Source: Armatimonadota bacterium | GTDB lineage: Bacteria; Sysuimicrobiota; Sysuimicrobiia; Sysuimicrobiales; Humicultoraceae | DNA: 27,300 nucleotides | Reading direction: 5' to 3' | Assembly (NCBI GenBank): GCA_037446215.1 | Contig: JBBIJB010000029.1 | Span: 1-27,300 of the forward strand | In this document: positions 532-27,272 of the stretch, one piece after another | Numbering within the stretch: the stretch's first letter is position 1 | Layout: every line of letters starts with the position of its first letter | Program-made: the position numbers and the translations under genes | The notes under the pieces: generated by a model | Database searches by the model: none | Told to the model about the DNA's origin: nothing | The model's input: only the letters and a program-made list of their open reading frames with translations

Positions 532-557
532 GACTAGACCTCGTCTTAGGTGGGCAA
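532..557 (+). promoter_or_regulatory. Putative SigB-type promoter, copy 1 (GACTAG-N14-GGGCAA)
   Basis: Same bipartite motif and 14-nt spacer as copies at 16884, 21093, 22102 and 23591. Lies upstream of ORF 605..877. Confidence 0.5.
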
Positions 558-604
558 GACCCTCATGAGGCGCGCTGCACCTACCCTTTGCCGGAGGGTG
601 TGCC

Positions 605-877
605 ATGGCTGATCAGGAGTCGACAGATGTTGCACGGGTGTTGGCTGCGCTCTACGAGGCCAAGGCCTGGTTTCGCCACGGCATCTCGGACGGCAGGCTG
701 GCCGAGCTCACGGGCCTTCCCATGGTCCGCGTGGTCGGCGCCCGCGTGAGGGCGGAGGCGGAGGGGCTGGTCGAGAGGCAGGGCGTAGGCACGAAGGACT
801 GCGTGACCCTCCTGACCCCGGCGGGCGTCGCTAAGGCGCAGGCCGCCGCCTCGGGCGAGCAGGCACCGTCTGGTTGA
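605..877 (+). CDS. Small winged-helix-like protein (putative DNA-binding)
   Basis: GGAGGG RBS upstream. The pattern ISDGRLAELTGLPMVRVV...EAEGLVER...TLLTPAG resembles MarR/wHTH proteins. Confidence 0.6.
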   Translation: MADQESTDVARVLAALYEAKAWFRHGISDGRLAELTGLPMVRVVGARVRAEAEGLVERQGVGTKDCVTLLTPAGVAKAQAAASGEQAPSG

Positions 878-8110: not shown

Positions 8111-8140
8111 TTGACGCGCCGTATTGTGGTATCTTATTGT
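8111..8140 (+). promoter_or_regulatory. Putative sigma70 promoter of the ABC cassette
   Basis: TTGACG-N18-TATTGT in an AT-rich intergenic patch. Confidence 0.5.
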
Positions 8141-8222
8141 GCAACCGCCGCGGCAGCCGCGGCCCAGGGCGCGCAGAAGTGAGCAGCGAGATCGGCACCA
8201 CATGGAGGGAGGGGTAGCGGAC

Positions 8223-9759
8223 GTGAGGATCACTCTTGGACGGATAGTCGCGCTGGCCGTGGTCGCGGCCCTTGTGCTCTCACCGCTGGTTCCCAGCGAG
8301 GCTCAGCAGCCGCGCCGTGGGGGAGTCCTGCGCATAGCGCACATAGGCGAGCCCCCGACGCTCGATCAGCACTGGACGACGGCGTCGATCACCGGCCACA
8401 TCATGTACAACGTGAACGAGGGCCTGTTCGCCGCGACCAGCAAGTTCGAGCCCAAGCCGATGCTGGTGGACAAGTGGGTGATGAGCGCCGACCGGCTCAC
8501 CTACACGTTCACCCTGCGCCGAGGGATCAAGTTCCACAACGGCAAGGATCTGACCAGCGAGGATGTCAAGGCCTCGCTCGAGCGCTGGGGTCGAATAGCG
8601 ACCCGGGGCAGGTCCCTCTTCGCCAACGTCGTCTCGCTGACCGCGCCCGACCCGCTGACGGTCGTGATGAAGCTCCGCGAGCCCTACGGGCTCCTCATCC
8701 TCGACCTCTCCTGGGTAGGCCAGTCGGCGGTCATCTTCCCCAAGGAGGTCATCGACGAGGCCGGTACCGGCCCTGTAAGGCGGTTCATCAGCACTGGGCC
8801 CTACCGGTTTGTCGAGCACCTGCCGGACAGGCACATCCGCCTGGATAGGTTCGATGGCTACCAGCCCAGGAGCGAGCCGCCCGACGGCGCCGCCGGCCGC
8901 AAGAACGCCTACTTCGACTCGATCTACGTCATCCCGGTCCCCGATTCCGCGGTCAGGAGGGGAGTACCAGTTCGCCGAGACGATCCCCCCGGACGAGTAC
9001 GACCGGCTGCGCACCGATGCCGACCTCGTGCCTTACGTGACCGACACCGCCAACTGGCTGACCGCCGTATTCAACAACCGCTCGCCGCTCATGTCCAACA
9101 AGAAGATCCGGCAGGCGTTCCAGGCGGCCCTCGACCAGGAGGCCGTCATGCGGGCGGCCTACGGCAACCCCAAGTTCTGGCGCCTCGATCCGGGGTTGAT
9201 GCCCAAAGAGCACTACATGTGGACCGACGCCGGCAAGGAGTTCGTGAACCAGAAGAACCCGACCAAGGCCCGGCAGCTCCTGGCCGAGAGCGGCTACAAG
9301 GGCGAGCCCCTGCGGTGGGTGACGACGATGGAGTACGTTGCCTACGGCACGGCTGCCCAGGTGGTGAAGCCGATGCTGGAGCGCGCGGGCTTCACGGTCG
9401 ATCTTCAGGTCGTGGACTGGGCCACCCTCGTGGCACGTCGGGCTCGACCGGAGCTGTGGGACGTCTTCAGCACCGCGTTCAGCTTCGTGCCCGACCCCGT
9501 CTTCCTGCTCTCGCTCAACCCGGTCTGGCCCGGATGGTACGATAACCGCGACATGAACGCGATGATGACCCTGCTGCGCAGGCACTCCGATCCCAAGGTC
9601 CGACGCGACCTCTGGGCGCGGATGCAGAAGCACTGGTACGAGGACGCGGGAACGATCAAGTTCGGCGACTACTTCCTGCTGCACCTCCACAGGAAGGAGC
9701 TCAAGGGCTACGGCAGCAGCCCTACGCACGTCTTCTGGAACGCTTGGTTGGAGCGCTAG
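8223..9759 (+). pseudogene. Opp/Dpp-family (SBP family 5) substrate-binding protein, frameshifted near 8958 (pseudogene or sequence error)
   Basis: The N-terminal half (signal peptide, GGVLRIA, EPPTLD, IKFHNG, STGPYRF) is in the 8124 frame up to PDSAVR. The C-terminal half (GEYQFAE...KIRQAFQAALD...FWNAWLER) is in the 8809 frame. Confidence 0.85.
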
Positions 9760-16374: not shown

Positions 16375-16889
16375 TCGGGCTGCTGCGGCTCCTGCTTCCC
16401 AGTCACCGCGTCGGTGCCGTATTCGATCTCTCCCCGGATCTCCTCAGGGAGTGGGGAATCGATGCCCTCATGCTCGACCTCGACAACACGCTGCTGGCCT
16501 GGGGCGAGTCAGCCCCGCCGCCGGAGGTGAGCAACTGGCTCGATGAGATCCGGCGCAGCGGGATTCCCGCGTGCCTCGTCTCCAACAGCCTCTCGGGGCG
16601 GTCGCGGGATGCCGCCTCCCTGCTCGGCCTTCCGATCGCGACCGGCCGCTTCAAGCCGAGCGCGGACAAGCTTAGGCGGGCGCTCGTGATACTGGGCACC
16701 GCCCCGGAGCGAACTGCGATGGTAGGAGACCAACTCTTCACCGACATCCTCGCCGGGAACAGGCTGGGCGTGCCCACCATCCTCACCTCGCCGCTCAGCC
16801 CCCGGGAGCCGCTGCGGATCCACCTGGTGCGCGCACTGGAGCGGATCTTCCTCTCGGTGCTCGCCCTGAGGGACGGCAGGGGGGACTAG
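16371..16889 (+). CDS. yqeG: YqeG-family HAD IIIA phosphatase
   Basis: DLDNTL, VSN, KP and VGDQLFTDILAGNRLG motifs. Confidence 0.9.
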   Translation: MIGLLRLLLPSHRVGAVFDLSPDLLREWGIDALMLDLDNTLLAWGESAPPPEVSNWLDEIRRSGIPACLVSNSLSGRSRDAASLLGLPIATGRFKPSADKLRRALVILGTAPERTAMVGDQLFTDILAGNRLGVPTILTSPLSPREPLRIHLVRALERIFLSVLALRDGRGD

Positions 16890-16909
16890 GAGGTTCGTGG
16901 TGGGGGCAC
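16884..16909 (+). promoter_or_regulatory. Putative SigB-type promoter, copy 2 (GACTAG-N14-GGGCAC)
   Basis: Matches the repeated motif. Overlaps the yqeG stop codon and lies upstream of ATG 16972 of the HD-GYP gene. Confidence 0.5.
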
Positions 16910-16971
16910 CTTACGCCAGGGACGAGGACGCCGCCGGGCCGTCCGCGGCGAGCCCAGGAGGCAGAGACCGG

Positions 16972-18612
16972 ATGCTTGGATGGTGGCGGGTGGCCGCAAG
17001 GGGGCTGGGCGCGGTAGTGGCCGCCGCGGCCCTTGCCGGGGCCGGTAGCGGGATCCCGTGGCTCCCGGCGCTGGCCCTTCTCGCGCTCCTTCCCGGGAAC
17101 GGGCTGATCCTGGAGGCCTACCTCCGGCGGCCGGGCGCCAAGGCTGAGGTTCCCGCGGATCAGGAGTCGGACGCCGCCGAACCCCCCCGCGTCCACGGCC
17201 GCGCTCCGCACGCCGCCGCTGCCGTGGACGCCGCGTCGATCTCGGCGCTGCTGGTCGTGACCGGGGGGCGAGGCGAGGTCTTCTTCCTCTACTTCCTGGC
17301 CATCGCCTGGGGTGCCCTCGGGTGGGGCCCCCGGGTCGCCGTTAGCGCGGCGGTGATGGCCGCGGGCGCCTTCACGGCGTCCCAGCTCCTCCTCAGCGCG
17401 CCCCTCGCTGCCACCGCTGGTCAGGCGGCGCTGCTGCTCGCCGCGGGGCTGACGATCGGGCTGGCCGAGCTCCGCCGCGTCGGGGCCGCAGCTGCCGGGC
17501 AGCGCGTCGTCCGTCATGCCCTCCGGCGCAACCGGATGGCGGAGGTGCTCCGGGGGGCGCTGGCAGCGCCCGGCCCTCCGGAGCTGCCGGAGCGGTCGCG
17601 CTGGCTGCTGGAGTGGGCGATGCGCCTGGGCCGCTGCGATTGGGGTGCGGTGGTGGTGCTCAACCCCGACGAGCGCCCCGTCGTTGAGGCCGAGTCAGAC
17701 GGGGCCGGCGGCATACGCTCCCCCCGCGAGGAGGTGCCGAGAACGGCGGTTCTCGACGACGCCCTCTCGACCGGCCGGCCGCAGCGCACCGCGGACGCCT
17801 CAGGAGACGCCCAGTGGTCGGACGTCACCAGGGCCCACGCGGTCCGCGGGGCGGTGCTGATCCCGATGGTGTCTGACGGCAAACCTTTGGGCGCCCTGGC
17901 GCTCGGGCGCAGCGCGGCGGGCGAGGTCGCCCCCGTCGATCTCGATCCCGTGGTGGCGCTGGCCGGCGCGGCGGCCCCGCTGCTGAGGGACGGACAGCTG
18001 CACGGCCAATCCCACGAGTTCCTGCTGAGCATGGTCAACACGCTGACCGCCGCGCTAGAGGCAAAGGATCCTTACACGCGCGGGCACTCCCAGCGCGTGG
18101 CCACCAATGCCGCCGCGATCGCCGCCGAGATGGGCCTTCCGCCGGGCGAGGTCGAGCGCGTTCGGTGGGCCGGCCTGCTGCACGACATCGGCAAGATCGC
18201 CATTCCGGAGCCGATCCTGCGAAAGCGCGGCCCCCTCACCGACGAGGAGCGGGCGCTGATGAACCTGCACCCGGACCGGGGCGCGGACATCCTGGCCGAG
18301 ATAGCGCCGTTTCGCCAGTTCGTCCCCTACGTCCTCTACCACCAGGAGGCCTACGACGGAAGCGGCTACCCCGAGGGGCTGGCGGGAGAGGCGATCCCTA
18401 TGGGGGCCCGCATCATCCGGGTCGCGGACACGTTCGACGCCCTCATCTCGCACAGGCCGTACCGTCGCGGGCGCACGGTCGAGAGCGCCATGGAGGAGAT
18501 GCGCTCGATGGCGGGGACCGGGCTGGACCCCGCGCTCGTCGACGTGTTCATGAGGATCCTTGCAGAGAAGCCGCCCTTCGAGGTGCAGTTGCGCCGATGG
18601 AGGGACGGTTGA
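16972..18612 (+). CDS. Membrane protein with GAF and HD-GYP domains (putative cyclic dinucleotide phosphodiesterase)
   Basis: Several N-terminal TM segments, GAF-like region (AVLIPMVSDGKPLGALALG), EAKDPYTRGHSQRV, LLHDIGK, YHQEAYDGSGYPEGL, VADTFDA, RPYR. ATG 16972 has AGGAGG about 10 nt upstream; GTG 16897 is the alternative start. Confidence 0.88.
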   Translation: MLGWWRVAARGLGAVVAAAALAGAGSGIPWLPALALLALLPGNGLILEAYLRRPGAKAEVPADQESDAAEPPRVHGRAPHAAAAVDAASISALLVVTGGRGEVFFLYFLAIAWGALGWGPRVAVSAAVMAAGAFTASQLLLSAPLAATAGQAALLLAAGLTIGLAELRRVGAAAAGQRVVRHALRRNRMAEVLRGALAAPGPPELPERSRWLLEWAMRLGRCDWGAVVVLNPDERPVVEAESDGAGGIRSPREEVPRTAVLDDALSTGRPQRTADASGDAQWSDVTRAHAVRGAVLIPMVSDGKPLGALALGRSAAGEVAPVDLDPVVALAGAAAPLLRDGQLHGQSHEFLLSMVNTLTAALEAKDPYTRGHSQRVATNAAAIAAEMGLPPGEVERVRWAGLLHDIGKIAIPEPILRKRGPLTDEERALMNLHPDRGADILAEIAPFRQFVPYVLYHQEAYDGSGYPEGLAGEAIPMGARIIRVADTFDALISHRPYRRGRTVESAMEEMRSMAGTGLDPALVDVFMRILAEKPPFEVQLRRWRDG

Positions 18613-18615
18613 GGG

Positions 18616-19596
18616 TCAGAACCGGTGGGGGGAGGCGGCCGTCATCGTCGTGTTCGTTTCCTGGCGTGCCCTTGCGTGCGCCTCCTCCGCACGCTCGAGC
18701 AGCGTGCGGTCGTCCTCGGCGTCGCCTGGGAACGCGGCGAGGCCCACGCTCACGGTGAGCGTGACCGGGAAGACGTCGTCGGCCACAGTGACCGTTGTCT
18801 GCTCCACTGAGCGCCTGATCCGCTCCGCGGCCTCCAGAGCCCCCTCCAGGGAGGTTTCCGGAAGCACGACGCCAAACCGGGTGCCGCCAAGGAAGGCACG
18901 CACGTCGACCTGCCTGGTTGCATCCGTCAGGAGCCCTGCGATCCTGATGACCACCGCGCGCATGCCTTCCTCGCCGAGGGACTCCCTGAGGGCATCGTCC
19001 TGGTCCAACGAGAGAAGGGCCACGCTGAAGACACGGCCGAACCGCCTGCCGCGGGAGGCCTCGCGCCTCACCGAGGCGGCGAAGTGGTTTGCGTTGAACA
19101 ACCCCGTCAACGGATCCACGACGACCTGGCGCCGTGACCTCTCCCCAAGGCCCTTGATCCTGTCCTGGGCGGCCATCCTGCGCCGGCCGTTGACCTGCTC
19201 GTACCTCCTGGCGCACTCGAGGATCCCGGCCGAGAGCACGTTGCTCACCGCGTCGACGGTGCCGCTTGTCACCACTTGGGGGCCGCCGTTCTCGGCGAGG
19301 AAGGCCAGGACCACTTCTCTTACGCAGGTCAGCGCCCTGATGACCTCGTCGGCGGGGACCTCGTGGGCTATAACCTCCTGTCCGAGGCGGCCGGCGAACT
19401 CGACGAACGGGTCCGCGCGGCCCGAGGCGAGGGCATCGGCGAAGGCGTCCATGCCGGCCAGCGCGTGGCGGTCGACCCTTCCGGGCTCCCACCACATGGG
19501 TCCTGCCCCCGGCATCGCGGCCATCTCACGCGACCACCTGCCGGCCAACTCCCGGCGTCTCCGGCGCACCAGATCGGCGGACTGCGGACTGATCAT
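18616..19596 (-). CDS. Degenerate GGDEF-domain protein with N-terminal RsbRD_N/globin-like helical domain
   Basis: DPLTGLFN, LTVSVGLAAFP and LLERAEEA mark a GGDEF fold. The A-site reads GGTRF and DxDxFK is replaced by SLDQDD, while the I-site RQVD is intact. The N-terminal domain call is tentative. Confidence 0.85.
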   Translation of the reverse strand: MISPQSADLVRRRRRELAGRWSREMAAMPGAGPMWWEPGRVDRHALAGMDAFADALASGRADPFVEFAGRLGQEVIAHEVPADEVIRALTCVREVVLAFLAENGGPQVVTSGTVDAVSNVLSAGILECARRYEQVNGRRRMAAQDRIKGLGERSRRQVVVDPLTGLFNANHFAASVRREASRGRRFGRVFSVALLSLDQDDALRESLGEEGMRAVVIRIAGLLTDATRQVDVRAFLGGTRFGVVLPETSLEGALEAAERIRRSVEQTTVTVADDVFPVTLTVSVGLAAFPGDAEDDRTLLERAEEAHARARQETNTTMTAASPHRF

Positions 19597-19710
19597 GGAC
19601 CCAGATCACCTCATACTACGCGGCAAGCCCGCAATCCTCTTGCCGGGTCCCGGTTTGCGCGCAGGAAGCGTGCCCGGTGGGGCGAATGTGGCGCATATCG
19701 GAGGTTTGCG

Positions 19711-20070
19711 ATGAGCTCGCGCTTGAGGGGCATACTCCAGGAGCTGGTCGGCGACGACACACGCGCCGCCGCCGTGGTCGGCAATGATGGGGAAGTGGTC
19801 GAAGTTGTGGCCAAGGCCGGGGGACAGGAGCTGCAGAATGCCGCGGCCGACCTCGCCGCCCTGGTGAAGGTAGGAGCCTACTGCGGCCGTAAGCTTGAAG
19901 GAGGGGATCTGGAGTACCTCACGGCCACGACCGAGAGCCTATCCTTGCTGGCCGTGGTGCTGGGGCCGGCTCACCACCTCGTGGCGCTGCTGGACTCGGG
20001 AGGAAATGTGGCAAGGGCCCGCGTGCAGATACGGCGCCGCAAGTCGGAGATCGCGGAGGAGCTGAAGTGA
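19711..20070 (+). CDS. Roadblock/LC7 (MglB-like) protein
   Basis: 119 aa; [39 protein letters not shown] before ATG 19711. Confidence 0.75.
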
Positions 20071-21062
20071 GGCGGGCTCGACTCCGGGCGGCGCAGGCGG
20101 CGCTCCTGGCCCTCGCGGCCTTCACCCTGCTCGGCCCCGCGACGGCCGAGGCCCGCACACCCGCGGCCGCCGCGGGTGGGGCGACCCTGCGCACCGGCGC
20201 GGCGAAGTTCGCCCAGGGACGCCTGGCGGAGGCGGAAGCCGAGTTCGCTCTCGAGGCCGGCAGAAACCCCCGCTCCCCGCACGCCTGGCTGTGGTTGGGA
20301 GTCGCCCGGTTCCACCGGGGGGAGTTCGCGGGGGCGGAGGGCGCGCTCGGCCGGGCCGCACGGCTGTCTCCGAGGGATCCCGTAGTCCACCTCTGGTGGG
20401 GCCACGCCCTCGCCCGGGCCGGCCGGACCAGGGAGGCCGCGGCCGTCTTTCGCCTGGTCATGTTGATGCCGGCGCCGGCCGGCGTCCACGATCTCGCAGG
20501 GCGGGCTTCGCGGGCCCTCGGGGCGCTGCCGGAGGCGGCGCCTGCACCTTCGCCATCGCACGGGGCAGGCCTCCCGGCCGCACCCTCCTGGGTCCTGGAG
20601 CCGGGCAGCTACCGGACCCTGGCCAGGTTCCACAACCCACGCCTCACCCACGAGGAGGCAGACCTGATAGGCCGCTCGCTGCTGGGCTACAGCAAGCACT
20701 TCAACATCGATCCCCGCCTGGTGGTGGCGCTCGTCGTCGTCGAGTCGGGGTTTCAGCCGGCGGCACGCTCGCGGGCCGGCGCGCTGGGGCTTGGCCAGCT
20801 GATGCCGGGGACCGCCAGGGCGTTGGGCGTGGACGCCCTCGATCCCTCCCAGAACCTCTACGGTTCAATTCGATACCTGCGGGGCAACCTCGATCGGTTT
20901 GGATGGCACAATCTCCACCTCGCCCTGGCCGCGTACAACGCCGGCCGCGGGGCGGTGGAGAGGTACAACGGCATCCCGCCCTACGCGGAGACCGAGTGGT
21001 ATGTCGCCAACGTCTCGGGCCTGTACAGGCGGCTGCTGTCCATGGCCGGGGCCGCCAACTGA
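20067..21062 (+). CDS. Secreted TPR plus SLT-family lytic transglycosylase
   Basis: Signal peptide; TPR-like repeats ([10 protein letters not shown]...[10 protein letters not shown]...A); SLT motifs [36 protein letters not shown]. Confidence 0.9.
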
Positions 21063-21092
21063 CCCCACAGGCTGCCCGCGGGCCCACCGAAG

Positions 21093-21118
21093 GACTAGGC
21101 GCCCGGCCGGAAGGGTAG
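21093..21118 (+). promoter_or_regulatory. Putative SigB-type promoter, copy 3 (GACTAG-N14-GGGTAG)
   Basis: Matches the repeated motif; about 33 nt upstream of riboswitch 1. Confidence 0.62.
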
Positions 21119-21151
21119 AACCGTCGCAGCGGAGAACAGAAAGAAGAGAGT

Positions 21152-21249
21152 ACCGTCGAACGGGCAAACCCATCGCGAGGTGGGGACGCAAAGCCACGGG
21201 GACGCGCGGGTCGGTTTCGGACGCGCGCCCGGCCGGGTTGCCGAGCGGT
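21152..21249 (+). ncRNA. Cyclic di-GMP-I (GEMM-I) riboswitch, copy 1
   Basis: GGGCAAACCCATC-GCGA-GGTGGGGACGCAAAGCCACGGG...GCCGGGTTGCCGA matches the GEMM-I consensus; P1 ACCGTCG/CGAGCGGT. Confidence 0.92.
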
Positions 21250-21252
21250 CGT

Positions 21253-21283
21253 GATGCCTTTCGGTCACCGGCCGGAAGGCATC
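21253..21283 (+). terminator. Terminator-like hairpin (expression platform of riboswitch 1)
   Basis: GATGCCTTTCGGTC/GGCCGGAAGGCATC stem immediately after the aptamer; U-tract weak. Confidence 0.5.
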
Positions 21284-21322
21284 TTGCATGAGGTCGGCTG
21301 TCGCGCCGTTGAGTGAGCAGAG

Positions 21323-22081
21323 ATGAACAGGCGGGTCGAGGTTGAGCCACCGTCGCGCCCGTGGGCACTGATCCTCCCCGAGGTGCTCGCGACGGTAGAG
21401 AAGCGCCGCGGTGCCCGTCTGGCCGGCCGCTTCAGGTCTGCCCTCTCCAAGGCCCTGGCCGACTTCGGGGGAAGGCTCCAGGGCGAGCGCATCCTTGCAC
21501 CGCCACTCCCCGAGTCGATGTGGCGGGTGGCGGTGGAGGCGGCGTGCGCGCCGGTCGTGGCGGTGGCCGGGCGCAATTTCGTGGACATGGCGATCGCGGA
21601 GGCGGAGGAGGCAGTAGCCACGGCCGCCTCGGCGCAGGCGGAGAAGGAGGAGGTCGAGGAGGAGGCGGAGGAGGAGGCCGAAGCGGAATCGCTCCCAGAG
21701 GCGGGGGAGCAACCGGAGGTACAGGTCGAGGAGCAGGTCGAGGAGCCTCCGCCGGAGGTGGCGCGCGAGGAACCCCTCGTCGTTTCGGACCCACCCACGA
21801 GTCGCAGGGGAGCGGAGGAGCGAAAGGCGGGCGCGCGGTTTCTATCGGCGCTCCGGGTGGGTGAGATCCTGCCCCCGAGCACCGAGGCGCGGATAGTAGC
21901 GGTCGGTGGGAAGGCGGCCCTGGGAGTGCTTGCCCTGATGGACGGCGTCCGCACGGTGGAGGAGATAGCCGGGGAGGTAGGCCTGGAGGTCGAGCAGGTG
22001 ACCGCCGTAGCCGACCTGCTGGTCTCATCCAAGGCGGCCTTCAGGTACATCAGCCGGGCACGCCCTCCGGTGGGCCCGTGA
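21323..22081 (+). CDS. Hypothetical protein with Glu-rich linker and C-terminal winged-helix-like domain
   Basis: Basic helical N-terminus, acidic EEEAEEEAE/PEV linker, C-terminal LALMDGVRTVEEIAGEVGLEVEQV...LL. Confidence 0.7.
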   Translation: MNRRVEVEPPSRPWALILPEVLATVEKRRGARLAGRFRSALSKALADFGGRLQGERILAPPLPESMWRVAVEAACAPVVAVAGRNFVDMAIAEAEEAVATAASAQAEKEEVEEEAEEEAEAESLPEAGEQPEVQVEEQVEEPPPEVAREEPLVVSDPPTSRRGAEERKAGARFLSALRVGEILPPSTEARIVAVGGKAALGVLALMDGVRTVEEIAGEVGLEVEQVTAVADLLVSSKAAFRYISRARPPVGP

Positions 22082-22101
22082 CCGCCGTTGGCAGGGGAAA
22101 C

Positions 22102-22127
22102 GTCTAGGCGAGTTACGGCTTGGGTAC
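22102..22127 (+). promoter_or_regulatory. Putative SigB-type promoter, copy 4 (GTCTAG-N14-GGGTAC), upstream of the sigma gene
   Basis: Matches the repeated motif; upstream of riboswitch 2 and the sigma gene. Confidence 0.62.
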
Positions 22128-22144
22128 ATGAACTGACGCTAACG

Positions 22145-22173
22145 TTGCACCAATGTTCTCGATGGCCTATCAT
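22145..22173 (+). promoter_or_regulatory. Putative sigma70 promoter upstream of riboswitch 2 and the sigma gene
   Basis: TTGCAC-N17-TATCAT in an AT-rich patch. Confidence 0.55.
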
Positions 22174-22212
22174 CGGTCCATTGAGACCATAGTGAAGGAA
22201 AACAGCATAGGT

Positions 22213-22295
22213 TCCCCGAACGTGGCAAACCCATCGCGAGGTGGGGGCGCAAAGCCTCGGGACCGCGGGGGCGGTCGGCCGGGCTGCCGAAGGGA
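22213..22295 (+). ncRNA. Cyclic di-GMP-I (GEMM-I) riboswitch, copy 2
   Basis: TGGCAAACCCATC-GCGA-GGTGGGGGCGCAAAGCCTCGGG...GCCGGGCTGCCGA; P1 TCCCCG/CGAAGGGA. Confidence 0.92.
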
Positions 22296-22301
22296 GGGCT
22301 A

Positions 22302-22332
22302 GAGGCCTCTTGGGGCAGTCCCGGGAGGCTTC
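22302..22332 (+). terminator. Terminator-like hairpin (expression platform of riboswitch 2)
   Basis: GAGGCCTCTTGGG/CCCGGGAGGCTTC stem running into TTCTTCAT. Confidence 0.55.
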
Positions 22333-22359
22333 TTCATCACCAGGGGAATCGAGGCGTCT

Positions 22360-23151
22360 ATGCCGGGTGTAGGAGAGACAGGCGGTGTGCAGGTGGCCGA
22401 GCATGGCGCGGCGGCCAGGAGCGGAATCGATCTCCTCTCCGAGGAGTATGCCCGGACTCAGGACCCAGGGGTGCGAGATCGTCTTGTCGCCGAGTGCTCT
22501 CCGATGGTGAGGCGGATCGCCGCCGAGTTCACCTACTCGGGGGCTGCTCAGGAGGACCTGATGCAGGTGGGCTTCATCGGGCTGCTCAACGCGATCGCGG
22601 CCTTCGACCCCGGGCGGGGCGCCAGGTTCACGACCTACGCGGGGTACTTGGTCCGCGGCGAGATCCGCCACTACCTGCGAGACCAGAGGGACACGATAAG
22701 GAAGCCGAGATGGCTGCAGAAGCTGAACGCCAGGATCGAGGAGTCGGTAGGCCGGTACGTTAGTGAGACCGGCAAGTTTCCCGGCCTGGAGACGCTTGCC
22801 GAGGATCTGAACATAGCCGAGGAAGGGCTGCTCGAGGTCCTGCGGACGCGCGAGGTCCTCAGGACCGTCTCGCTCGAGAGCGAGGAGGACGACGGCACCC
22901 TCCGCGTCGATCGCGACCGGATAAGGCACAGGTCCCACATCAGCTTCCAGCTTCCCATAGAGGACAGGGTGATGCTGATGGAGGCGCTGGAGTCCCTGTC
23001 GGGCCTCCAGAGAAAGGTGGTCTACTACCTCTTCTTCACCGATCTGACGCAGATGGAGGCGGCGAAGAGGATCGGCATATCGCAGAAGCATGTGTCGCGC
23101 GTGCTTGCCGGGGCTCTAGCGAAGCTTCGGGGAATGATCGGCGTCTCGTAG
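22360..23151 (+). CDS. RNA polymerase sigma factor, SigB/SigF/SigG family
   Basis: EDLMQVGFIGLLNAIAAFDPGRGARFTTYA, GEIRHYLRD...IRKPRWL, region 4 LTQMEAAKRIGISQKHVSRV. Start could be GTG 22387 or 22393. Confidence 0.93.
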   Translation: MPGVGETGGVQVAEHGAAARSGIDLLSEEYARTQDPGVRDRLVAECSPMVRRIAAEFTYSGAAQEDLMQVGFIGLLNAIAAFDPGRGARFTTYAGYLVRGEIRHYLRDQRDTIRKPRWLQKLNARIEESVGRYVSETGKFPGLETLAEDLNIAEEGLLEVLRTREVLRTVSLESEEDDGTLRVDRDRIRHRSHISFQLPIEDRVMLMEALESLSGLQRKVVYYLFFTDLTQMEAAKRIGISQKHVSRVLAGALAKLRGMIGVS

Positions 23152-23180
23152 CGGGCGCCTGGGGGCGGGAGGGACTGGAG

Positions 23181-23537
23181 ATGTCTCAACTGAGGGACGT
23201 GCTCGTAGATCTCACGAAGGTGGGGGGCGTCGTTGCCGCCCTCGTTGTTGGCCGCGACGGCTTCGTGGTCGAGGGGATGACCACCGAGGAGACGGTCGAT
23301 CTGGAGGCCGTCGGCGCGATAGTCGCAAGCAACATCTCGGTCGCCGACTCGATGGGCCGCGAGATGGTGCGCGGTCCGCTCCGGAGCATGCTGCTGGAGT
23401 TCGACGACGGCCCCGTAGCTGTGGGCCCCGCGGGCGCCGACGCGATCCTGGTGGTAGTCGGCACCAAGCAGGCCAACCTCGGCCGGATACGCCTCGAGAT
23501 GCGTCGAAACGGCCAGCTGGCCGCCGCCCTCGTCTAG
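23181..23537 (+). CDS. Roadblock/LC7 (MglB-like) protein
   Basis: GVVAALVVGRDGFVVE...EAVGA...MLLEFDDG...ANLGRIRLEMRR; GGAGGG RBS. Confidence 0.9.
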   Translation: MSQLRDVLVDLTKVGGVVAALVVGRDGFVVEGMTTEETVDLEAVGAIVASNISVADSMGREMVRGPLRSMLLEFDDGPVAVGPAGADAILVVVGTKQANLGRIRLEMRRNGQLAAALV

Positions 23538-23590
23538 CACATCGGGGGGCAGCACGCGACAGCGCCAGCCGGGATCACAGCCCTCTGCGC

Positions 23591-23616
23591 GTCTAGCCGG
23601 ACGGCAGGGTGGGAAT
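23591..23616 (+). promoter_or_regulatory. Putative SigB-type promoter, copy 5 (GTCTAG-N14-GGGAAT), upstream of the pilin operon
   Basis: Matches the repeated motif; GGGAAT fits the SigB -10 consensus GGGWAW. Confidence 0.65.
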
Positions 23617-23709
23617 ACGCTTGAGGGGCAATCCCCGGAAGGTTTCCGGAAGACGTGAGGAGAATAGAAGGGCTCGACATTCCTCGCTCCGCAACAGGGG
23701 TGGACACAT

Positions 23710-24150
23710 ATGCGGCAGCGGCCGCGGGTCAGGCTCTTCGCAAGTGACGGAGGGTTCACCTACCTCGAACTGCTCGTTGCGCTGTCGCTCTTTGCCGGCG
23801 TCTCCGTATTCCTCATACAGACCTTCATAATCGGCATGGCGCACGCGGGCCGCGCCAACGAGCGCGCGGCCGGCACAACGCTCGCCATGCAGGTGATGGA
23901 GCAGATACGGGCGAGCGTCAACCCGTACGAGAGGGTGGGCTTCGTCGACCTACCGAGGTCCACGCTGCCGCTTGCCGATCCCTACACCGGGGTCAGTAAC
24001 CCCACACCGCACAACTTCCAGGTGGCGGTGGACGTCACCCGCGATATGAACCTGGGGCTCACAACGGCCACGGTCCAGGTCTTCCGGTCCTCGGATCCGC
24101 TCGGAAGCCCTCCCTTCGTTTCCCTGAGCACGGTGCTCGATGACCAGTAG
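23710..24150 (+). CDS. Type IV minor pilin (PilV/GspI-like)
   Basis: Class III signal DGG|FTYLELLVAL with E5; later motif LAMQVMEQIRA. Confidence 0.85.
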   Translation: MRQRPRVRLFASDGGFTYLELLVALSLFAGVSVFLIQTFIIGMAHAGRANERAAGTTLAMQVMEQIRASVNPYERVGFVDLPRSTLPLADPYTGVSNPTPHNFQVAVDVTRDMNLGLTTATVQVFRSSDPLGSPPFVSLSTVLDDQ

Positions 24151-24739
24151 GATGCGCACCCGGCCCATCCCGTCACTCCCCTCCGACGACCGCGGGATAA
24201 CCCTCATCGAGATGGTGGTGGCGCTCAGCCTCCTAACCCTGGTTCTCGGGGCCATCTACGCGTTCGTGGCGTTCGGCGGAAGATCGGCCCGGGCAACCAA
24301 CGACTTCCTGCAGACCCAGGCCCACGTAAGGGCTGCGCTGGACAACATGGTCGACGAGATCAGGTGGGCGCAGGGCGTGGTCTGCGCCTCCGCCACGGCG
24401 GTCTCGCTGCTGATCCCGCAGGACACGCCGTTCTCGGCTTCCAGTCCCTACCAGGTCACCTTCGCGCATGACGGTGCGCGGATGGCCCTTGTGCGAAGGC
24501 AGGATGGGGCAGGCACCGGGTGCCCTGACGACACCTCGGGAGAGGCCCTGGCCCTGTTCGTCTCCCACGAGGACGGGTCGGGCGGGCTGACCCTGGGGTA
24601 CTTCCTCGCGGACGGCGGGCCGTGGAACTCGGCTGCTGACCCCCTAGGCTCGATCGCCAGGGTAAGGATAACCGTGACGACGACGCGGGATCGGACAAGC
24701 CGCACCTTCGCCGGGGATGCGGCGCTTCGTGGCCGGTAG
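24140..24739 (+). CDS. Type IV minor pilin (PilW/GspJ-like)
   Basis: DRG|ITLIEMVVAL with E5; ALDNMVDEIRWA; C-terminal IARVRITV...ALR. Alternative start ATG 24152. Confidence 0.85.
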   Translation: MTSRMRTRPIPSLPSDDRGITLIEMVVALSLLTLVLGAIYAFVAFGGRSARATNDFLQTQAHVRAALDNMVDEIRWAQGVVCASATAVSLLIPQDTPFSASSPYQVTFAHDGARMALVRRQDGAGTGCPDDTSGEALALFVSHEDGSGGLTLGYFLADGGPWNSAADPLGSIARVRITVTTTRDRTSRTFAGDAALRGR

Positions 24740-24753
24740 GAGGCTGATGTAGG

Positions 24754-26844
24754 ATGATGGGCCTGCTGAGAAGCCAGAGGGGAATGGCGCTGGCCGCGGT
24801 CCTGACCGTGATACTCATCCTGTCCCTGCTGGGGGGGCTGATCCTCTACCTCAGCGGCAAGGAGATCGGGTTGAGCGCGGTGCGGGTGCTCGGGGCACAG
24901 GGCATGTACATAGCCGAGGGCGGGGCCTATTCGGCGCGGGCGGCCCTCATGGCGCTCATGAACGCCGACCCGATCGGGGCGACCACCCTGGACGGCTCAC
25001 TGGACGGCACGACACTGCACACCTGGTACGCCGGGGGCGATCCCGCGCTGCAGAACGCATTCGGCATATTCAACTTCCTGGTCCTAGATGGGGTAAGGTA
25101 CGTCCTCGCCGCGACGTCAGCCACGGAGTCGCTCGCCTTTCACGTCAACTGGGGGGTTCCCCAGCCCCACCGCAAGCTCGTGGCGGCCGCCGGGGCTCCG
25201 CCCTCCAACGCGCTCGGAGAGGGCAGCTACACGGCCACGGTGACCGTGCGCAGGAGGCTGGGACCCCATCCGACGGACGCATCCCAGCCCCTGCGGTACA
25301 TCCAGCGGGTTTGGGTCCCGGACAAGACGGACTACGTGTACGAGTTCTTCTACTCGTACGAGGTCGTCGCCGACGGCCGCGTGAACCCGCAGGCCCGCCG
25401 CCGTATCGGGCTGCGGGGCGACTACAGCCTGGTCGCGTCTCGGCTGAGCTTCGCGGAGTATGCCCTCTTCACCCACGTCCACACGGGTCCCGCGGGGGAG
25501 GCACTGTGGTTCGCCAACATGTCGTTCTACGACGGCCCGGTTCACACCAACGGGGAGTTCAGGTTCGCCTACTTCCCGAAGTTCGGCACCCCGGACTACA
25601 ACGTGCCCTGCCGGGACGCCAACGCGTCCACAACCCGCCTGACCAGCGCCGGGACGCACGCCCACTTCTTCAACAGGGGCAGCGCTGTCCGGCTCGCGGC
25701 CAACGAGAACGTGGACTCGAGGGGGAGCAGGGTCGACGCCCCGGTGGTGCCCGACTGCGATACCAACTTCAGCAACGACCACGACAACCCCCCTGCCAAC
25801 TTCACCCGGGGCGCGCCGGTCATACCCCTGCCCAGCAACCCCTACAGCCAGCAGGGGGTATCCATAGGGCGTGACCCGGCCGATACCACACTCGTCTCCA
25901 ACTCGCAGATACGGCAGGCTGTACCCGAGCTCGCGAACAACTCGGATCCGGTTCCGGCCGGCATCTACGTTCCTGTAACGGACACCAACGCGGACGGGGT
26001 CTCGAATGCCGGGGAGCCCATGCGGGGCGGGATCTACGTGCAGGGCAACCTGGACAGCCTGACCCTCGGCATGACCCACAGCACGGCCTCGCCGGGCGCG
26101 TGCAGCCTGCCCGCGGGGACGCCGGGCGGGTGCGCGGTGTACACCCTGGTCCAGGGAGGGCAGACCGTCACCGTGGTGGTGGACCGGGCCACCCAGAGGA
26201 CGACGGTCACCAACACCTCCTGGCCGGTTGCCTCCCGGACGCGGACCTTCGAAGGCGTGCCCAAGGGGTGGCAGGGCCCGGGTCAGAGCAGCGCGGCCGT
26301 CGTCTTCGTAGCGGGGAACATCGCTTCGCTCCACGGGACGCTGGAGGAGAAGGAACAGACCACGATAGCAGGATCAGGACGCATAGACATCACCAACCAC
26401 ATCCTCTACGAGGTGCCGCCGAGGGTCCACGATCCGAACCACAACCCGCTTAACGTGCTCGGCATCTACTCGGCCAACAACGACATCAGGTTCGTCACGA
26501 ACCCCAACGACCCGTCCACGAGAGACCTCGACATCCACGGAGTGCTGATGGCGGGCAACCTGGGCGACGGGTTCAACAGCCGGATCTTCAACTCGACCTG
26601 GAACGAGCCGCCCAACAGAGGGTACATTCGGCTGATCGGAGGGATGATCGCGGAGTACCTCGGGGTCTTCGGGGTGATGAACGCCGCCGGTCAGCTAGTC
26701 AGGGGCTACGGATCGGACTTCCTGTACGACCGGCGGATGAGCCGGGGCTTCATGCCGCCCTACTTCCCGACGATCGACCGGTACCACGTGAACGCCGTGA
26801 ACCTCGCCGGTCGCCGCCCGACCTGGCGCGAAGGGTCGCCGTGA
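24754..26844 (+). CDS. Large PilX/GspK-like pilin with DUF4900/ComZ-like C-terminal region
   Basis: QRG|MALAAVL lacks E5 (a PilX/GspK trait), followed by YIAEGG. The body carries FAEYALF, DGPVHTNG, GIYVQG and terminal YDRRM...PPYFP. Confidence 0.75.
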   Translation: MMGLLRSQRGMALAAVLTVILILSLLGGLILYLSGKEIGLSAVRVLGAQGMYIAEGGAYSARAALMALMNADPIGATTLDGSLDGTTLHTWYAGGDPALQNAFGIFNFLVLDGVRYVLAATSATESLAFHVNWGVPQPHRKLVAAAGAPPSNALGEGSYTATVTVRRRLGPHPTDASQPLRYIQRVWVPDKTDYVYEFFYSYEVVADGRVNPQARRRIGLRGDYSLVASRLSFAEYALFTHVHTGPAGEALWFANMSFYDGPVHTNGEFRFAYFPKFGTPDYNVPCRDANASTTRLTSAGTHAHFFNRGSAVRLAANENVDSRGSRVDAPVVPDCDTNFSNDHDNPPANFTRGAPVIPLPSNPYSQQGVSIGRDPADTTLVSNSQIRQAVPELANNSDPVPAGIYVPVTDTNADGVSNAGEPMRGGIYVQGNLDSLTLGMTHSTASPGACSLPAGTPGGCAVYTLVQGGQTVTVVVDRATQRTTVTNTSWPVASRTRTFEGVPKGWQGPGQSSAAVVFVAGNIASLHGTLEEKEQTTIAGSGRIDITNHILYEVPPRVHDPNHNPLNVLGIYSANNDIRFVTNPNDPSTRDLDIHGVLMAGNLGDGFNSRIFNSTWNEPPNRGYIRLIGGMIAEYLGVFGVMNAAGQLVRGYGSDFLYDRRMSRGFMPPYFPTIDRYHVNAVNLAGRRPTWREGSP

Positions 26845-27272
26845 GCACCCGAAGCCGCCAGGGGGGATACTCCCTCCTGGAGCTGGTCGTGGTGGGGATG
26901 GTGGTGGCGGTGCTGCTCGGGCTCGCAGTTTCGAACTGGCACGGCCACGCCGAGCGGCAGCGTCTCCGCTACGGCGTGGCCCAGGTCGCCTCCGCCCTGC
27001 GGGTGGCGGTCGAGCGTGCCAAGGCCGAGCGCATCGCCTACACCGTGACCTTCAATGCGGACTCCGGCGACTACACGATCGCTCGAAGCGGAGGAGGGTT
27101 CCTGGAGAACGCGCGCCTGCCCGACCGGGTGACGGCCGAGCGCAACCTCATCGTCACCGTCTCCGCGTTTGGGCGGCCCGATGCCGCGTGCACGGTGACG
27201 GTCCGGAACGGATCGGGTACAGCCGCGGCCTCGATCAACGCCGCGGGGGGAATCAGCTACCAGGAGCCCTAG
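26841..27272 (+). CDS. Type IV minor pilin (FimT/FimU/GspH-like)
   Basis: QGG|YSLLELVVV with E5; VASALRVAVERAKAE. Start overlaps the upstream stop (GTGA). Confidence 0.85.
   Translation: MSTRSRQGGYSLLELVVVGMVVAVLLGLAVSNWHGHAERQRLRYGVAQVASALRVAVERAKAERIAYTVTFNADSGDYTIARSGGGFLENARLPDRVTAERNLIVTVSAFGRPDAACTVTVRNGSGTAAASINAAGGISYQEP

Follow-up and report, generated by a model that had tools for sequence, protein, structure and literature searches.

Possible control of a predicted type IV pilus regulon in the Sysuimicrobiota by a cyclic di-GMP riboswitch that precedes a SigB-like sigma factor gene

In a window of 27,300 nucleotides (nt) from an Armatimonadota bacterium of the uncultured phylum CSP1-3/Sysuimicrobiota (assembly GCA_037446215.1, contig JBBIJB010000029.1, positions 1 to 27,300), a class I cyclic di-GMP (c-di-GMP) riboswitch lies in the leader of a gene for a SigB-like sigma factor, and one SigB-type promoter motif precedes both this gene and pilin genes. 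The arrangement probably (I put it at about 0.68) places a type IV pilus regulon under a riboswitch-gated sigma factor, with a graded, c-di-GMP-repressed response and no toggle. The window is contig C29 of genome G000 (2.16 Mb, 68% GC, 91% complete); the phylum comparison set numbers 94 genomes, with families labelled f1 (that of the window), f2, f4, f5 and f7. The relatives are kin and not independent samples, and the promoter motif was derived from the same loci, so the counts given here describe conservation, not significance. An earlier sequence-only reading of this window had listed its genes, proposed a bistable circuit and suggested a comparison of synteny. Profile searches of the open reading frames (ORFs) in the window found every gene it named in its place, and the riboswitch-sigma neighbourhood and the motif are kept in related genomes.

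The two c-di-GMP-I riboswitches claimed in that reading are both confirmed by the Rfam clan models and by the ligand-contact residues G20, A47 and C92, a numbering that I take to be that of Vc2. Aptamer 1 (RS1, 21153..21245, plus strand) scores 52.8 bits with RF01051 (gathering cut-off 35), and aptamer 2 (RS2, 22215..22292, plus strand), which forms the leader of the sigma gene, scores 59.6 bits with RF03167 (gathering cut-off 59) and 60.1 bits with RF01051. That RS2 is a c-di-GMP-I-GGC ligand variant is ruled out by the A at position 47. Both are followed by predicted terminators on the same strand: a hairpin behind RS1 (21255..21281) with a 5' arm complementary to the aptamer 3' strand, and an intrinsic terminator behind RS2 (22305..22329), whose loop and 5' arm could form an antiterminator with the 3' strand of the aptamer. 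This layout is that of the Cd1-type transcriptional OFF switch, described by a PA/TH versus AT scheme (PMC9262584). As the aptamer 3' strand itself, and no separate element, competes for the terminator 5' arm, both riboswitches would turn transcription off upon binding c-di-GMP, which supports the proposed gating of the sigma gene. The full RS2 leader of the window folds as aptamer plus terminator (z -2.9), and a transcript cut within the terminator adopts the fold that pairs the aptamer 3' strand with the terminator arm; compared with shuffled arms, this antiterminator pairing has a p of 0.043 for RS2 and 0.007 for RS1. A terminator-like hairpin with a T-rich tail follows 23 of 29 RS2 copies and 16 of 17 RS1 copies, versus 23 of 74 shuffles, and 30 cells of the RS2 stem show two-sided changes, a number reached by none of 500 shuffles.

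That the riboswitch is an ON switch, or senses another cyclic dinucleotide such as c-AMP-GMP, with pili made at high signal, I consider highly improbable. Two congeners (L044 and L045, from G003 and G004) have A20 instead of G20 in RS2, a change linked to a shift of specificity toward c-AMP-GMP. Also in favour of high-signal pili is the activation of MshEN-type PilB by c-di-GMP in Vibrio (PMC8325347). Against these stand G20 in the window and in 51 of 53 aptamer copies (A47 is found in 53 of 53; C92 was required by the search pattern), the six GG[DE]EF-intact cyclase domains of the genome, and the strand competition that argues for OFF logic.

Of the 73 sigma loci fetched, out of 85 relatives with an orthologue match, 55 have an aptamer no more than about 450 nt 5' of the sigma orthologue. 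By family the counts are 28/28 in f1, 18/19 in f2 (two of these by pattern match only), 8/17 in f4, 1/1 in f7 and 0/8 in f5, where one locus included only 360 nt of upstream sequence. The f1 paralogues of the sigma gene have an upstream aptamer in none of seven cases. In genus g29 the sigma gene occurs in two tandem copies (L169, L172, L174), with the riboswitch before the first only. A third aptamer in the genome of the window, on C71, stands before glycoside-hydrolase-like genes.

The sigma gene itself (22360..23151, plus strand) encodes the only factor of the SigB/F/G clade among the six sigma factors found in the genome; TIGR02980 is its best family at 173.7 bits, under its cut-off of 234.35. 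The protein stays below the cut-off of every SigB-clade model; it reaches 150.8 bits with the cyanobacterial SigF model NF005644 (cut-off 261), and 93.8 bits with the FliA/WhiG model, against 173.7 with the SigBFG model. Its closest solved chain is 8x6g_H, which I take to be Staphylococcus aureus SigB, with the region 2.4 and 4.2 motifs in common. Orthologue-level matches occur in 86 of the 94 phylum genomes. The absence of partner-switch genes from the window, pointed out in the sequence-only reading, extends to the genome: a search for anti-sigma partners in this 91%-complete genome gave no RsbW-like match, and no STAS match was obtained in any of the eight genomes of the genus (this one and seven congeners). 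Ten HATPase_c_2 matches are all within frames of at least 370 aa, too long for RsbW, and the single SpoIIE match is partial (43/192 positions). Where relatives do have RsbW, its gene adjoins a second sigma gene, whose product is 33-38% identical; nine such RsbW-linked sigmas group in a clade apart (support 0.996), and the loci fetched for them contain no aptamer. The basal support of the sigma tree, 0.46, is too low to say whether the riboswitch-type sigmas are one clade.

The motif G[AT]CT[AG]N-N14-GGGHA is present, as had been proposed, before the sigma gene, the HD-GYP gene, a winged-helix gene and the pilin genes (window positions 22102, 16884, 21093 and 23591), each time with a 14-nt spacer and with conservation in relatives. 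Spacing and -10 box are those of Bacillus subtilis SigB as quoted in PMC2532724 (14 nt and GGGTAT), and the motif is probably read by the SigB-like sigma. The site at 22102..22127 (plus strand), upstream of the sigma riboswitch, is the best of the genome with a position weight matrix (PWM) score of 23.5, and is a candidate direct self-promoter. That feeding RS1 (21093..21118, plus strand) is found before RS1 in 18 of 18 family relatives. The one before the minor-pilin operon (23591..23616, plus strand) recurs in relatives: it is in the same place in L042, L043, L045, L046, L048 and L049, occurs as a variant in L056 and L057, and is absent in L050. A fifth copy (532-557) precedes a 90-aa ORF at 605-877 (together 532..877, plus strand), apparently a further regulon member; in G023 an ORF with a product 31% identical to that of the window is likewise 3' of the motif.

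In the genome as a whole, GWCTAG-N14-GGGHA has 11 copies (6 of them outside the window) with about 1 expected, and the 25 other spacers tried, in the range 5 to 30, give 0-4 copies each. The relaxed motif is intergenic and upstream of 12 genes at N14, versus 1-4 genes for each other spacer (10 to 18). Over the 94 phylum genomes, GWCTAR-N14-GGGHAT matches 381 times in 83 genomes, as opposed to 23 times in 20 genomes for the N12 control, and the N14 motif is strongest in families f1 and f4. Pilus genes recur among the marked genes: the motif precedes five of the seven pilin loci of the genome (on C14, C29, C31, C91 and C120, not on C20 or C69), the marked pilin on C120 being the one behind pilB-pilT-pilC, and it also precedes an MshEN-pilT-pilT operon on C10. 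The main pilus cluster of relatives includes the sigma gene, and their operon of DnaB-like, MerR, DUF6812, pilB, pilT and pilC genes is preceded by the motif in all 12 f1 loci and in none of the three f5 loci. Twenty further motif regions, from lists of four to six sites in five relatives, include seven that precede pilT, a pilin gene or the secretin operon; the others precede polysaccharide, signalling, transport or uncharacterised genes, and two have no nearby gene. A competence role, which the sequence-only reading had left open beside piliation, is not supported, as comEC is present without a motif nearby (comEA was not searched for).

Other genes with the motif in the genome of the window are an operon for UDP-glucose dehydrogenase, an epimerase and a GT2 glycosyltransferase, mraZ, and a few genes without assigned function. 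A high-scoring site (G000:C122:1746, L086) is located 58 nt 5' of mraZ-rsmH, with which the division and cell-wall cluster usually begins. The UDP-glucose dehydrogenase operon is preceded by the motif in two genomes (G000:C72:8089, that is L084, and also L205), and surface polysaccharide or pilin glycosylation may be co-regulated with pili. The 525-aa DnaB-like helicase protein that heads the pilB-pilT-pilC operon (L050:1112-2686 and orthologues), followed by a small MerR-type HTH gene and DUF6812, was not found in G000 beyond a 24% match.

It is also conceivable, but rather unlikely, that the riboswitch only trims the level of the sigma factor while the real switch is post-translational, through an unrecognised partner such as the adjacent Roadblock protein or the proteins of the RS1 operon, or that another sigma reads the motif. 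The Roadblock/LC7 gene directly 3' of the sigma gene (23181..23537, plus strand, E 2.6e-15) follows it in all 21 f1 and 4 f5 loci compared, including f5 loci, in which no riboswitch was found; its product is highly conserved (mean column identity 69%), and a crude P-loop scan of the genome gave no MglA-like short GTPase. A complex prediction for the sigma and this Roadblock protein scored 0.00 with no folded controls for comparison, and has no weight either way. A mere trimming function sits uneasily with retention of the riboswitch in 28 of 28 family members. As for another sigma, five further factors are encoded in the genome: RpoD, SigH, a FliA/WhiG-like factor, an ECF factor and one unassigned. 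The known promoter types of RpoD, SigH, FliA/WhiG and ECF sigmas differ from GGGHA, and G026 and G029 (both incomplete genomes), which lack a sigma orthologue, have 0 motif matches.

Transcription of the sigma gene by its own product, another part of the proposed circuit, is only partly supported. The candidate direct self-promoter is there in the window, but it is shared by only 13 of 28 f1 relatives and is not found in the six congeners checked, and a housekeeping-type promoter that had escaped the sequence-only reading also feeds the riboswitch. This sigma-A-like element, TTGCAC-N17-TATCAT (22145..22173, plus strand), lies 5' of RS2, with counterparts in 13 of 21 f1 relatives and in 5 of 7 relatives outside the family. 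A sigma-70/terminator scanner found no promoter and 2 terminator-like sites, which did not exceed shuffles, and it overlooked the riboswitch terminators as well as this element. Six f1 relatives and f7 have an AGGA-N-GAAT element before RS2 instead (L048, L049, L053, L056, L057, L061, L065), presumably of SigH type, and the genome of the window encodes a true SigH; a looser look-alike stands at window 23640-23665, before the pilins. The promoter of RS1 could reach the sigma gene as well, through both switches. In L154 (G083) the motif lies between riboswitch and sigma gene, where self-activation would bypass the switch. The winged-helix gene that had been listed behind one of the motifs is an ORF (21323..22081, plus strand) with a weak C-terminal winged helix; the motif does precede it, but the ORF is a fusion remnant, which joins the ends of two genes that relatives keep apart in their RS1 operon. 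In relatives, RS1 heads two to five genes (for periplasmic-binding, TAXI-type, membrane and two uncharacterised proteins). Neither the fused ORF nor its parent genes gave a Pfam family above cut-off or an Atlas match above 0.84.

The central proposal of the sequence-only reading was that the sigma drives both itself and an active phosphodiesterase, two positive loops that would make a bistable piliation switch. I consider this unlikely, mainly on account of the presumed phosphodiesterase. This is a membrane-anchored protein with GAF and HD-GYP (HD_5) domains (16897..18612, plus strand); its GTG at 16897 is inside the promoter motif and GGAGG precedes an ATG at 16972, so that the latter is the more likely start. 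The promoter site (16884..16909, plus strand) overlaps the yqeG stop codon and has the lowest PWM score of the window sites, 13.4, but nine of ten relatives have a GTCTG-type variant there, against 0 of 94 control gene ends, and the tenth shows the motif too. The lack of conservation suggested by a strict CTA-only pattern is ruled out by this variant at the same place. The HD and GYP motifs are kept in 14 of 14 sequences, the substrate motif RxYR (RPYR in the window) in all 11 aligned, and Lys-x-Gly is kept as well, all of which would fit an active enzyme. The metal-ligand set, on the other hand, is incomplete, with HQE for HHE in 14 of 14 sequences. The altered residue, Gln here, aligns with H277 of PmGH, of which the H277A mutant has essentially lost its activity (PMC4159591); the tested mutation was to Ala and not to Gln. 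At the position of E185 the protein has Tyr, as in the binuclear group of the same paper. Both inactive HD-GYPs with altered HHE and an active RpfG without a key His are listed in 10.1101/2021.11.05.467447, so that one His may be dispensable, though that source does not state which. HQE was not found among the HD-GYP literature searched, nor did any paper combine RpfG, HD-GYP and HQE.

The distribution of this gene also speaks against the double loop, as the orthologue was found in 19 of 33 f1 genomes and in no other family, whereas the riboswitch-sigma pair spans four families. The three other HD-GYP genes of the genome are of HHE type and lack the motif, as do its cyclase genes, and no EAL was found in a genome search. 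In G014 the motif precedes an operon of a histidine kinase and a REC-GGEEF cyclase (L188, G014:C1:1564611; the closest G000 cyclase is without it), possibly a negative feedback, contrary to two positive loops. In a toy model with hyperbolic self-activation, none of 4000 random parameter sets was bistable without a sigma-driven phosphodiesterase, with either one or two switches; with it, 163 and 254 of 4000 were, the parameters being random and not measured ones. A toggle thus depends on the doubtful part, and the bistable double loop is not supported. The HD-GYP protein could be a weak or inactive phosphodiesterase, or a c-di-GMP binder. The adjacent degenerate GGDEF protein (18616..19596, minus strand) has GGTRF for GGDEF and keeps an RxxD five residues upstream, a spacing that I take to mark an I-site; RxxD occurs in 12 of 13 printed sequences, and one is outside the pattern. 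With RxxD but no active site it is a possible c-di-GMP receptor, so that both proteins may be receptors. A second degenerate GGDEF protein (G000:C103:564-1463) is encoded among pilus genes, near prepilin-peptidase-like and secretin genes.

In the mechanism that I propose, RS2 would terminate transcription at high c-di-GMP, and at low c-di-GMP read-through would reach the sigma gene, the product of which would then transcribe the type IV pilus regulon from its G[AT]CT[AG]N-N14-GGGHA promoters. Basal input would come from the housekeeping-type promoter, and amplification from promoters read by the sigma itself, of which one is immediately 5' in some genera and another precedes RS1 in the whole family. 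The riboswitch would take on the role that RsbW/RsbV have for an ordinary SigB, and a fall in c-di-GMP would be expected to give an amplified but graded output. As for the HD-GYP and degenerate GGDEF proteins, they would more likely bind c-di-GMP or act as weak enzymes, in a role specific to the family, than drain it strongly. An elaboration that I regard as doubtful would combine the replacement of partner switching by riboswitches with a true toggle, in which the sigma re-transcribes its own gene through two riboswitches in series and induces the HQE HD-GYP and an I-site-only GGDEF protein, which drain or sequester c-di-GMP, cells become either piliated or non-piliated, and an MshEN PilB deploys the pili once c-di-GMP rises.

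A number of observations weigh against the riboswitch-gated pilus regulon. Eight orthologues in f5 and nine in f4 lack a riboswitch directly upstream, and in the 94-genome scan families f5 and f2 show the motif only weakly. A recognisable terminator is missing from five of the six f2/f7 RS2 copies tested, and the expression platform may therefore differ there. Antiterminator complementarity reaches p<0.05 in only 11 of 23 RS2 and 7 of 16 RS1 copies. The covariation of the RS2 stem is nearly equal at a slide of +1 (76% paired; 0.407 vs 0.402), which is due to an imperfect alignment register. The enrichment of the motif is partly circular, as it was derived from these loci, and an anti-sigma gene might be missed in a genome that is 91% complete. 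Finally, the PilB on C120 carries the c-di-GMP-binding MshEN motif, so that low c-di-GMP need not mean more pili. If MshEN acts here as in Vibrio, pilus parts could be made at low c-di-GMP and assembled when c-di-GMP rises.

No description of this wiring was found in the literature searched, but the general logic has already been described at the protein level in Rubrobacter (PMC8325347). In the (RsiG)2-(c-di-GMP)2-WhiG system of that genus, pilus genes and genes for diguanylate cyclases and phosphodiesterases are under a c-di-GMP-repressed sigma (PMC8325347; PMC12871210). As in the present case, an alternative sigma is repressed by c-di-GMP, the predicted targets include type IV pili and c-di-GMP turnover genes, and feedback has been proposed. 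There, however, a c-di-GMP-armed anti-sigma protein acts on a sigma-28/WhiG factor, whereas here an RNA switch would act on the sigma's own transcript, the sigma is of the SigB/F clade and the promoter is G[AT]CT[AG]N-N14-GGGHA. The sigma model scores place the factor outside RsiG-WhiG; no search was made for RsiG itself. In Clostridioides difficile the Cd1 riboswitch gates the flgB operon, which contains sigD (PMC6366702, PMC9262584), likewise a class I c-di-GMP OFF switch over an alternative sigma, with the same competition between aptamer and terminator. In that species, however, sigD is one gene of a long flagellar operon, its product drives flagellar and toxin genes, and piliation is induced by c-di-GMP by way of a class II riboswitch. 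In the window the riboswitch forms part of the leader of the sigma gene itself, which has candidate self-promoters and predicted pilus targets.

The SigF of Synechocystis is autoregulated and drives pilA1 (PMC2532724, PMC7690835). It is a SigB-related group 3 sigma with a GGGT-type -10 box in its pilin promoter, and at the level of sequence a similar arrangement appears here, in that promoters of one class, presumably read by the sigma, stand before pilin genes as well as before the sigma gene. SigF drives mainly the major pilin, while the present motif is found before minor pilins, pilT and the pilB/T/C operon as well; in the review searched on SigF the word riboswitch occurs 0 times. With the SigB of Bacillus and Staphylococcus the factor shares its sequence clade, the region 2.4 and 4.2 motifs, the 14-nt spacer and a GGGTA-like -10 box, but no RsbW or STAS was found in the genome and the predicted targets are pili instead of stress genes. 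The literature searched held no riboswitch directly on a SigB-clade pilus sigma, although subscription papers and supplements (riboswitch-survey tables, PMC11604079 Table S5) could list one; in PMC11604079, the paper on the phylum, the words pili, pilus, sigma and c-di-GMP do not appear in the main text.

Four prepilin-type genes (23710..27272, plus strand; starts 23710, 24140, 24754 and 26841; 146, 199, 696 and 143 aa) follow the second Roadblock gene. The Pfam N-methyl cut-off is passed by the product of 24140 only; that of 26841 matches below cut-off, that of 23710 has weak GspI/ComGE matches, and that of 24754 is a 696-aa DUF4900 protein. The same four genes come after the Roadblock gene in 5 of the first 21 family relatives, with 2 further cases, and other relatives have a different pilin set, or pilus machinery genes straight after the Roadblock gene. 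A first Roadblock/LC7-like protein (19711..20070, plus strand) has a weak match below cut-off (E 0.002) and is conserved in the locus, and the gene for a TPR and soluble lytic transglycosylase protein (20067..21062, plus strand) is near the sigma gene in most loci of relatives. In six relatives (L042:~15840, L043, L046, L047, L050, L062) a third c-di-GMP-I aptamer is located on the minus strand, ~3.5-7.2 kb downstream of the sigma gene. It is back to back with the promoter of the pilus machinery, whose -35 box it overlaps, and the gene behind it, for a TPR-MshEN-PilB-like ATPase, was not found in G000, whose contig ends there. Elsewhere in the window, a tRNA gene (915-989, Rfam RF00005) lies between the 605-877 ORF and groEL, and a peptide ABC substrate-binding gene (8124-9759) is apparently split into frames 8124-9545 and 8809-9759, by a frameshift or an assembly error.

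The module is an RNA-level variant of a regulatory logic that was already known. With a riboswitch in the leader of a SigB-clade sigma gene, it would represent a third way of placing an appendage sigma under c-di-GMP control. Beyond the sequence-only reading, this analysis brings out the HQE defect, the limited distribution of the HD-GYP gene and the basal promoter, and hence the case against bistability; it also flags a conserved HQE-type HD-GYP subfamily of uncertain activity. The parts are small and could be tested in a laboratory host without culturing the organism. The riboswitch-sigma arrangement is kept across four families of an uncultured, widespread phylum, where a sharp promoter signature delimits the predicted pilus regulon, and it suggests that SigB-like factors can shed RsbW/RsbV and be gated by RNA instead.

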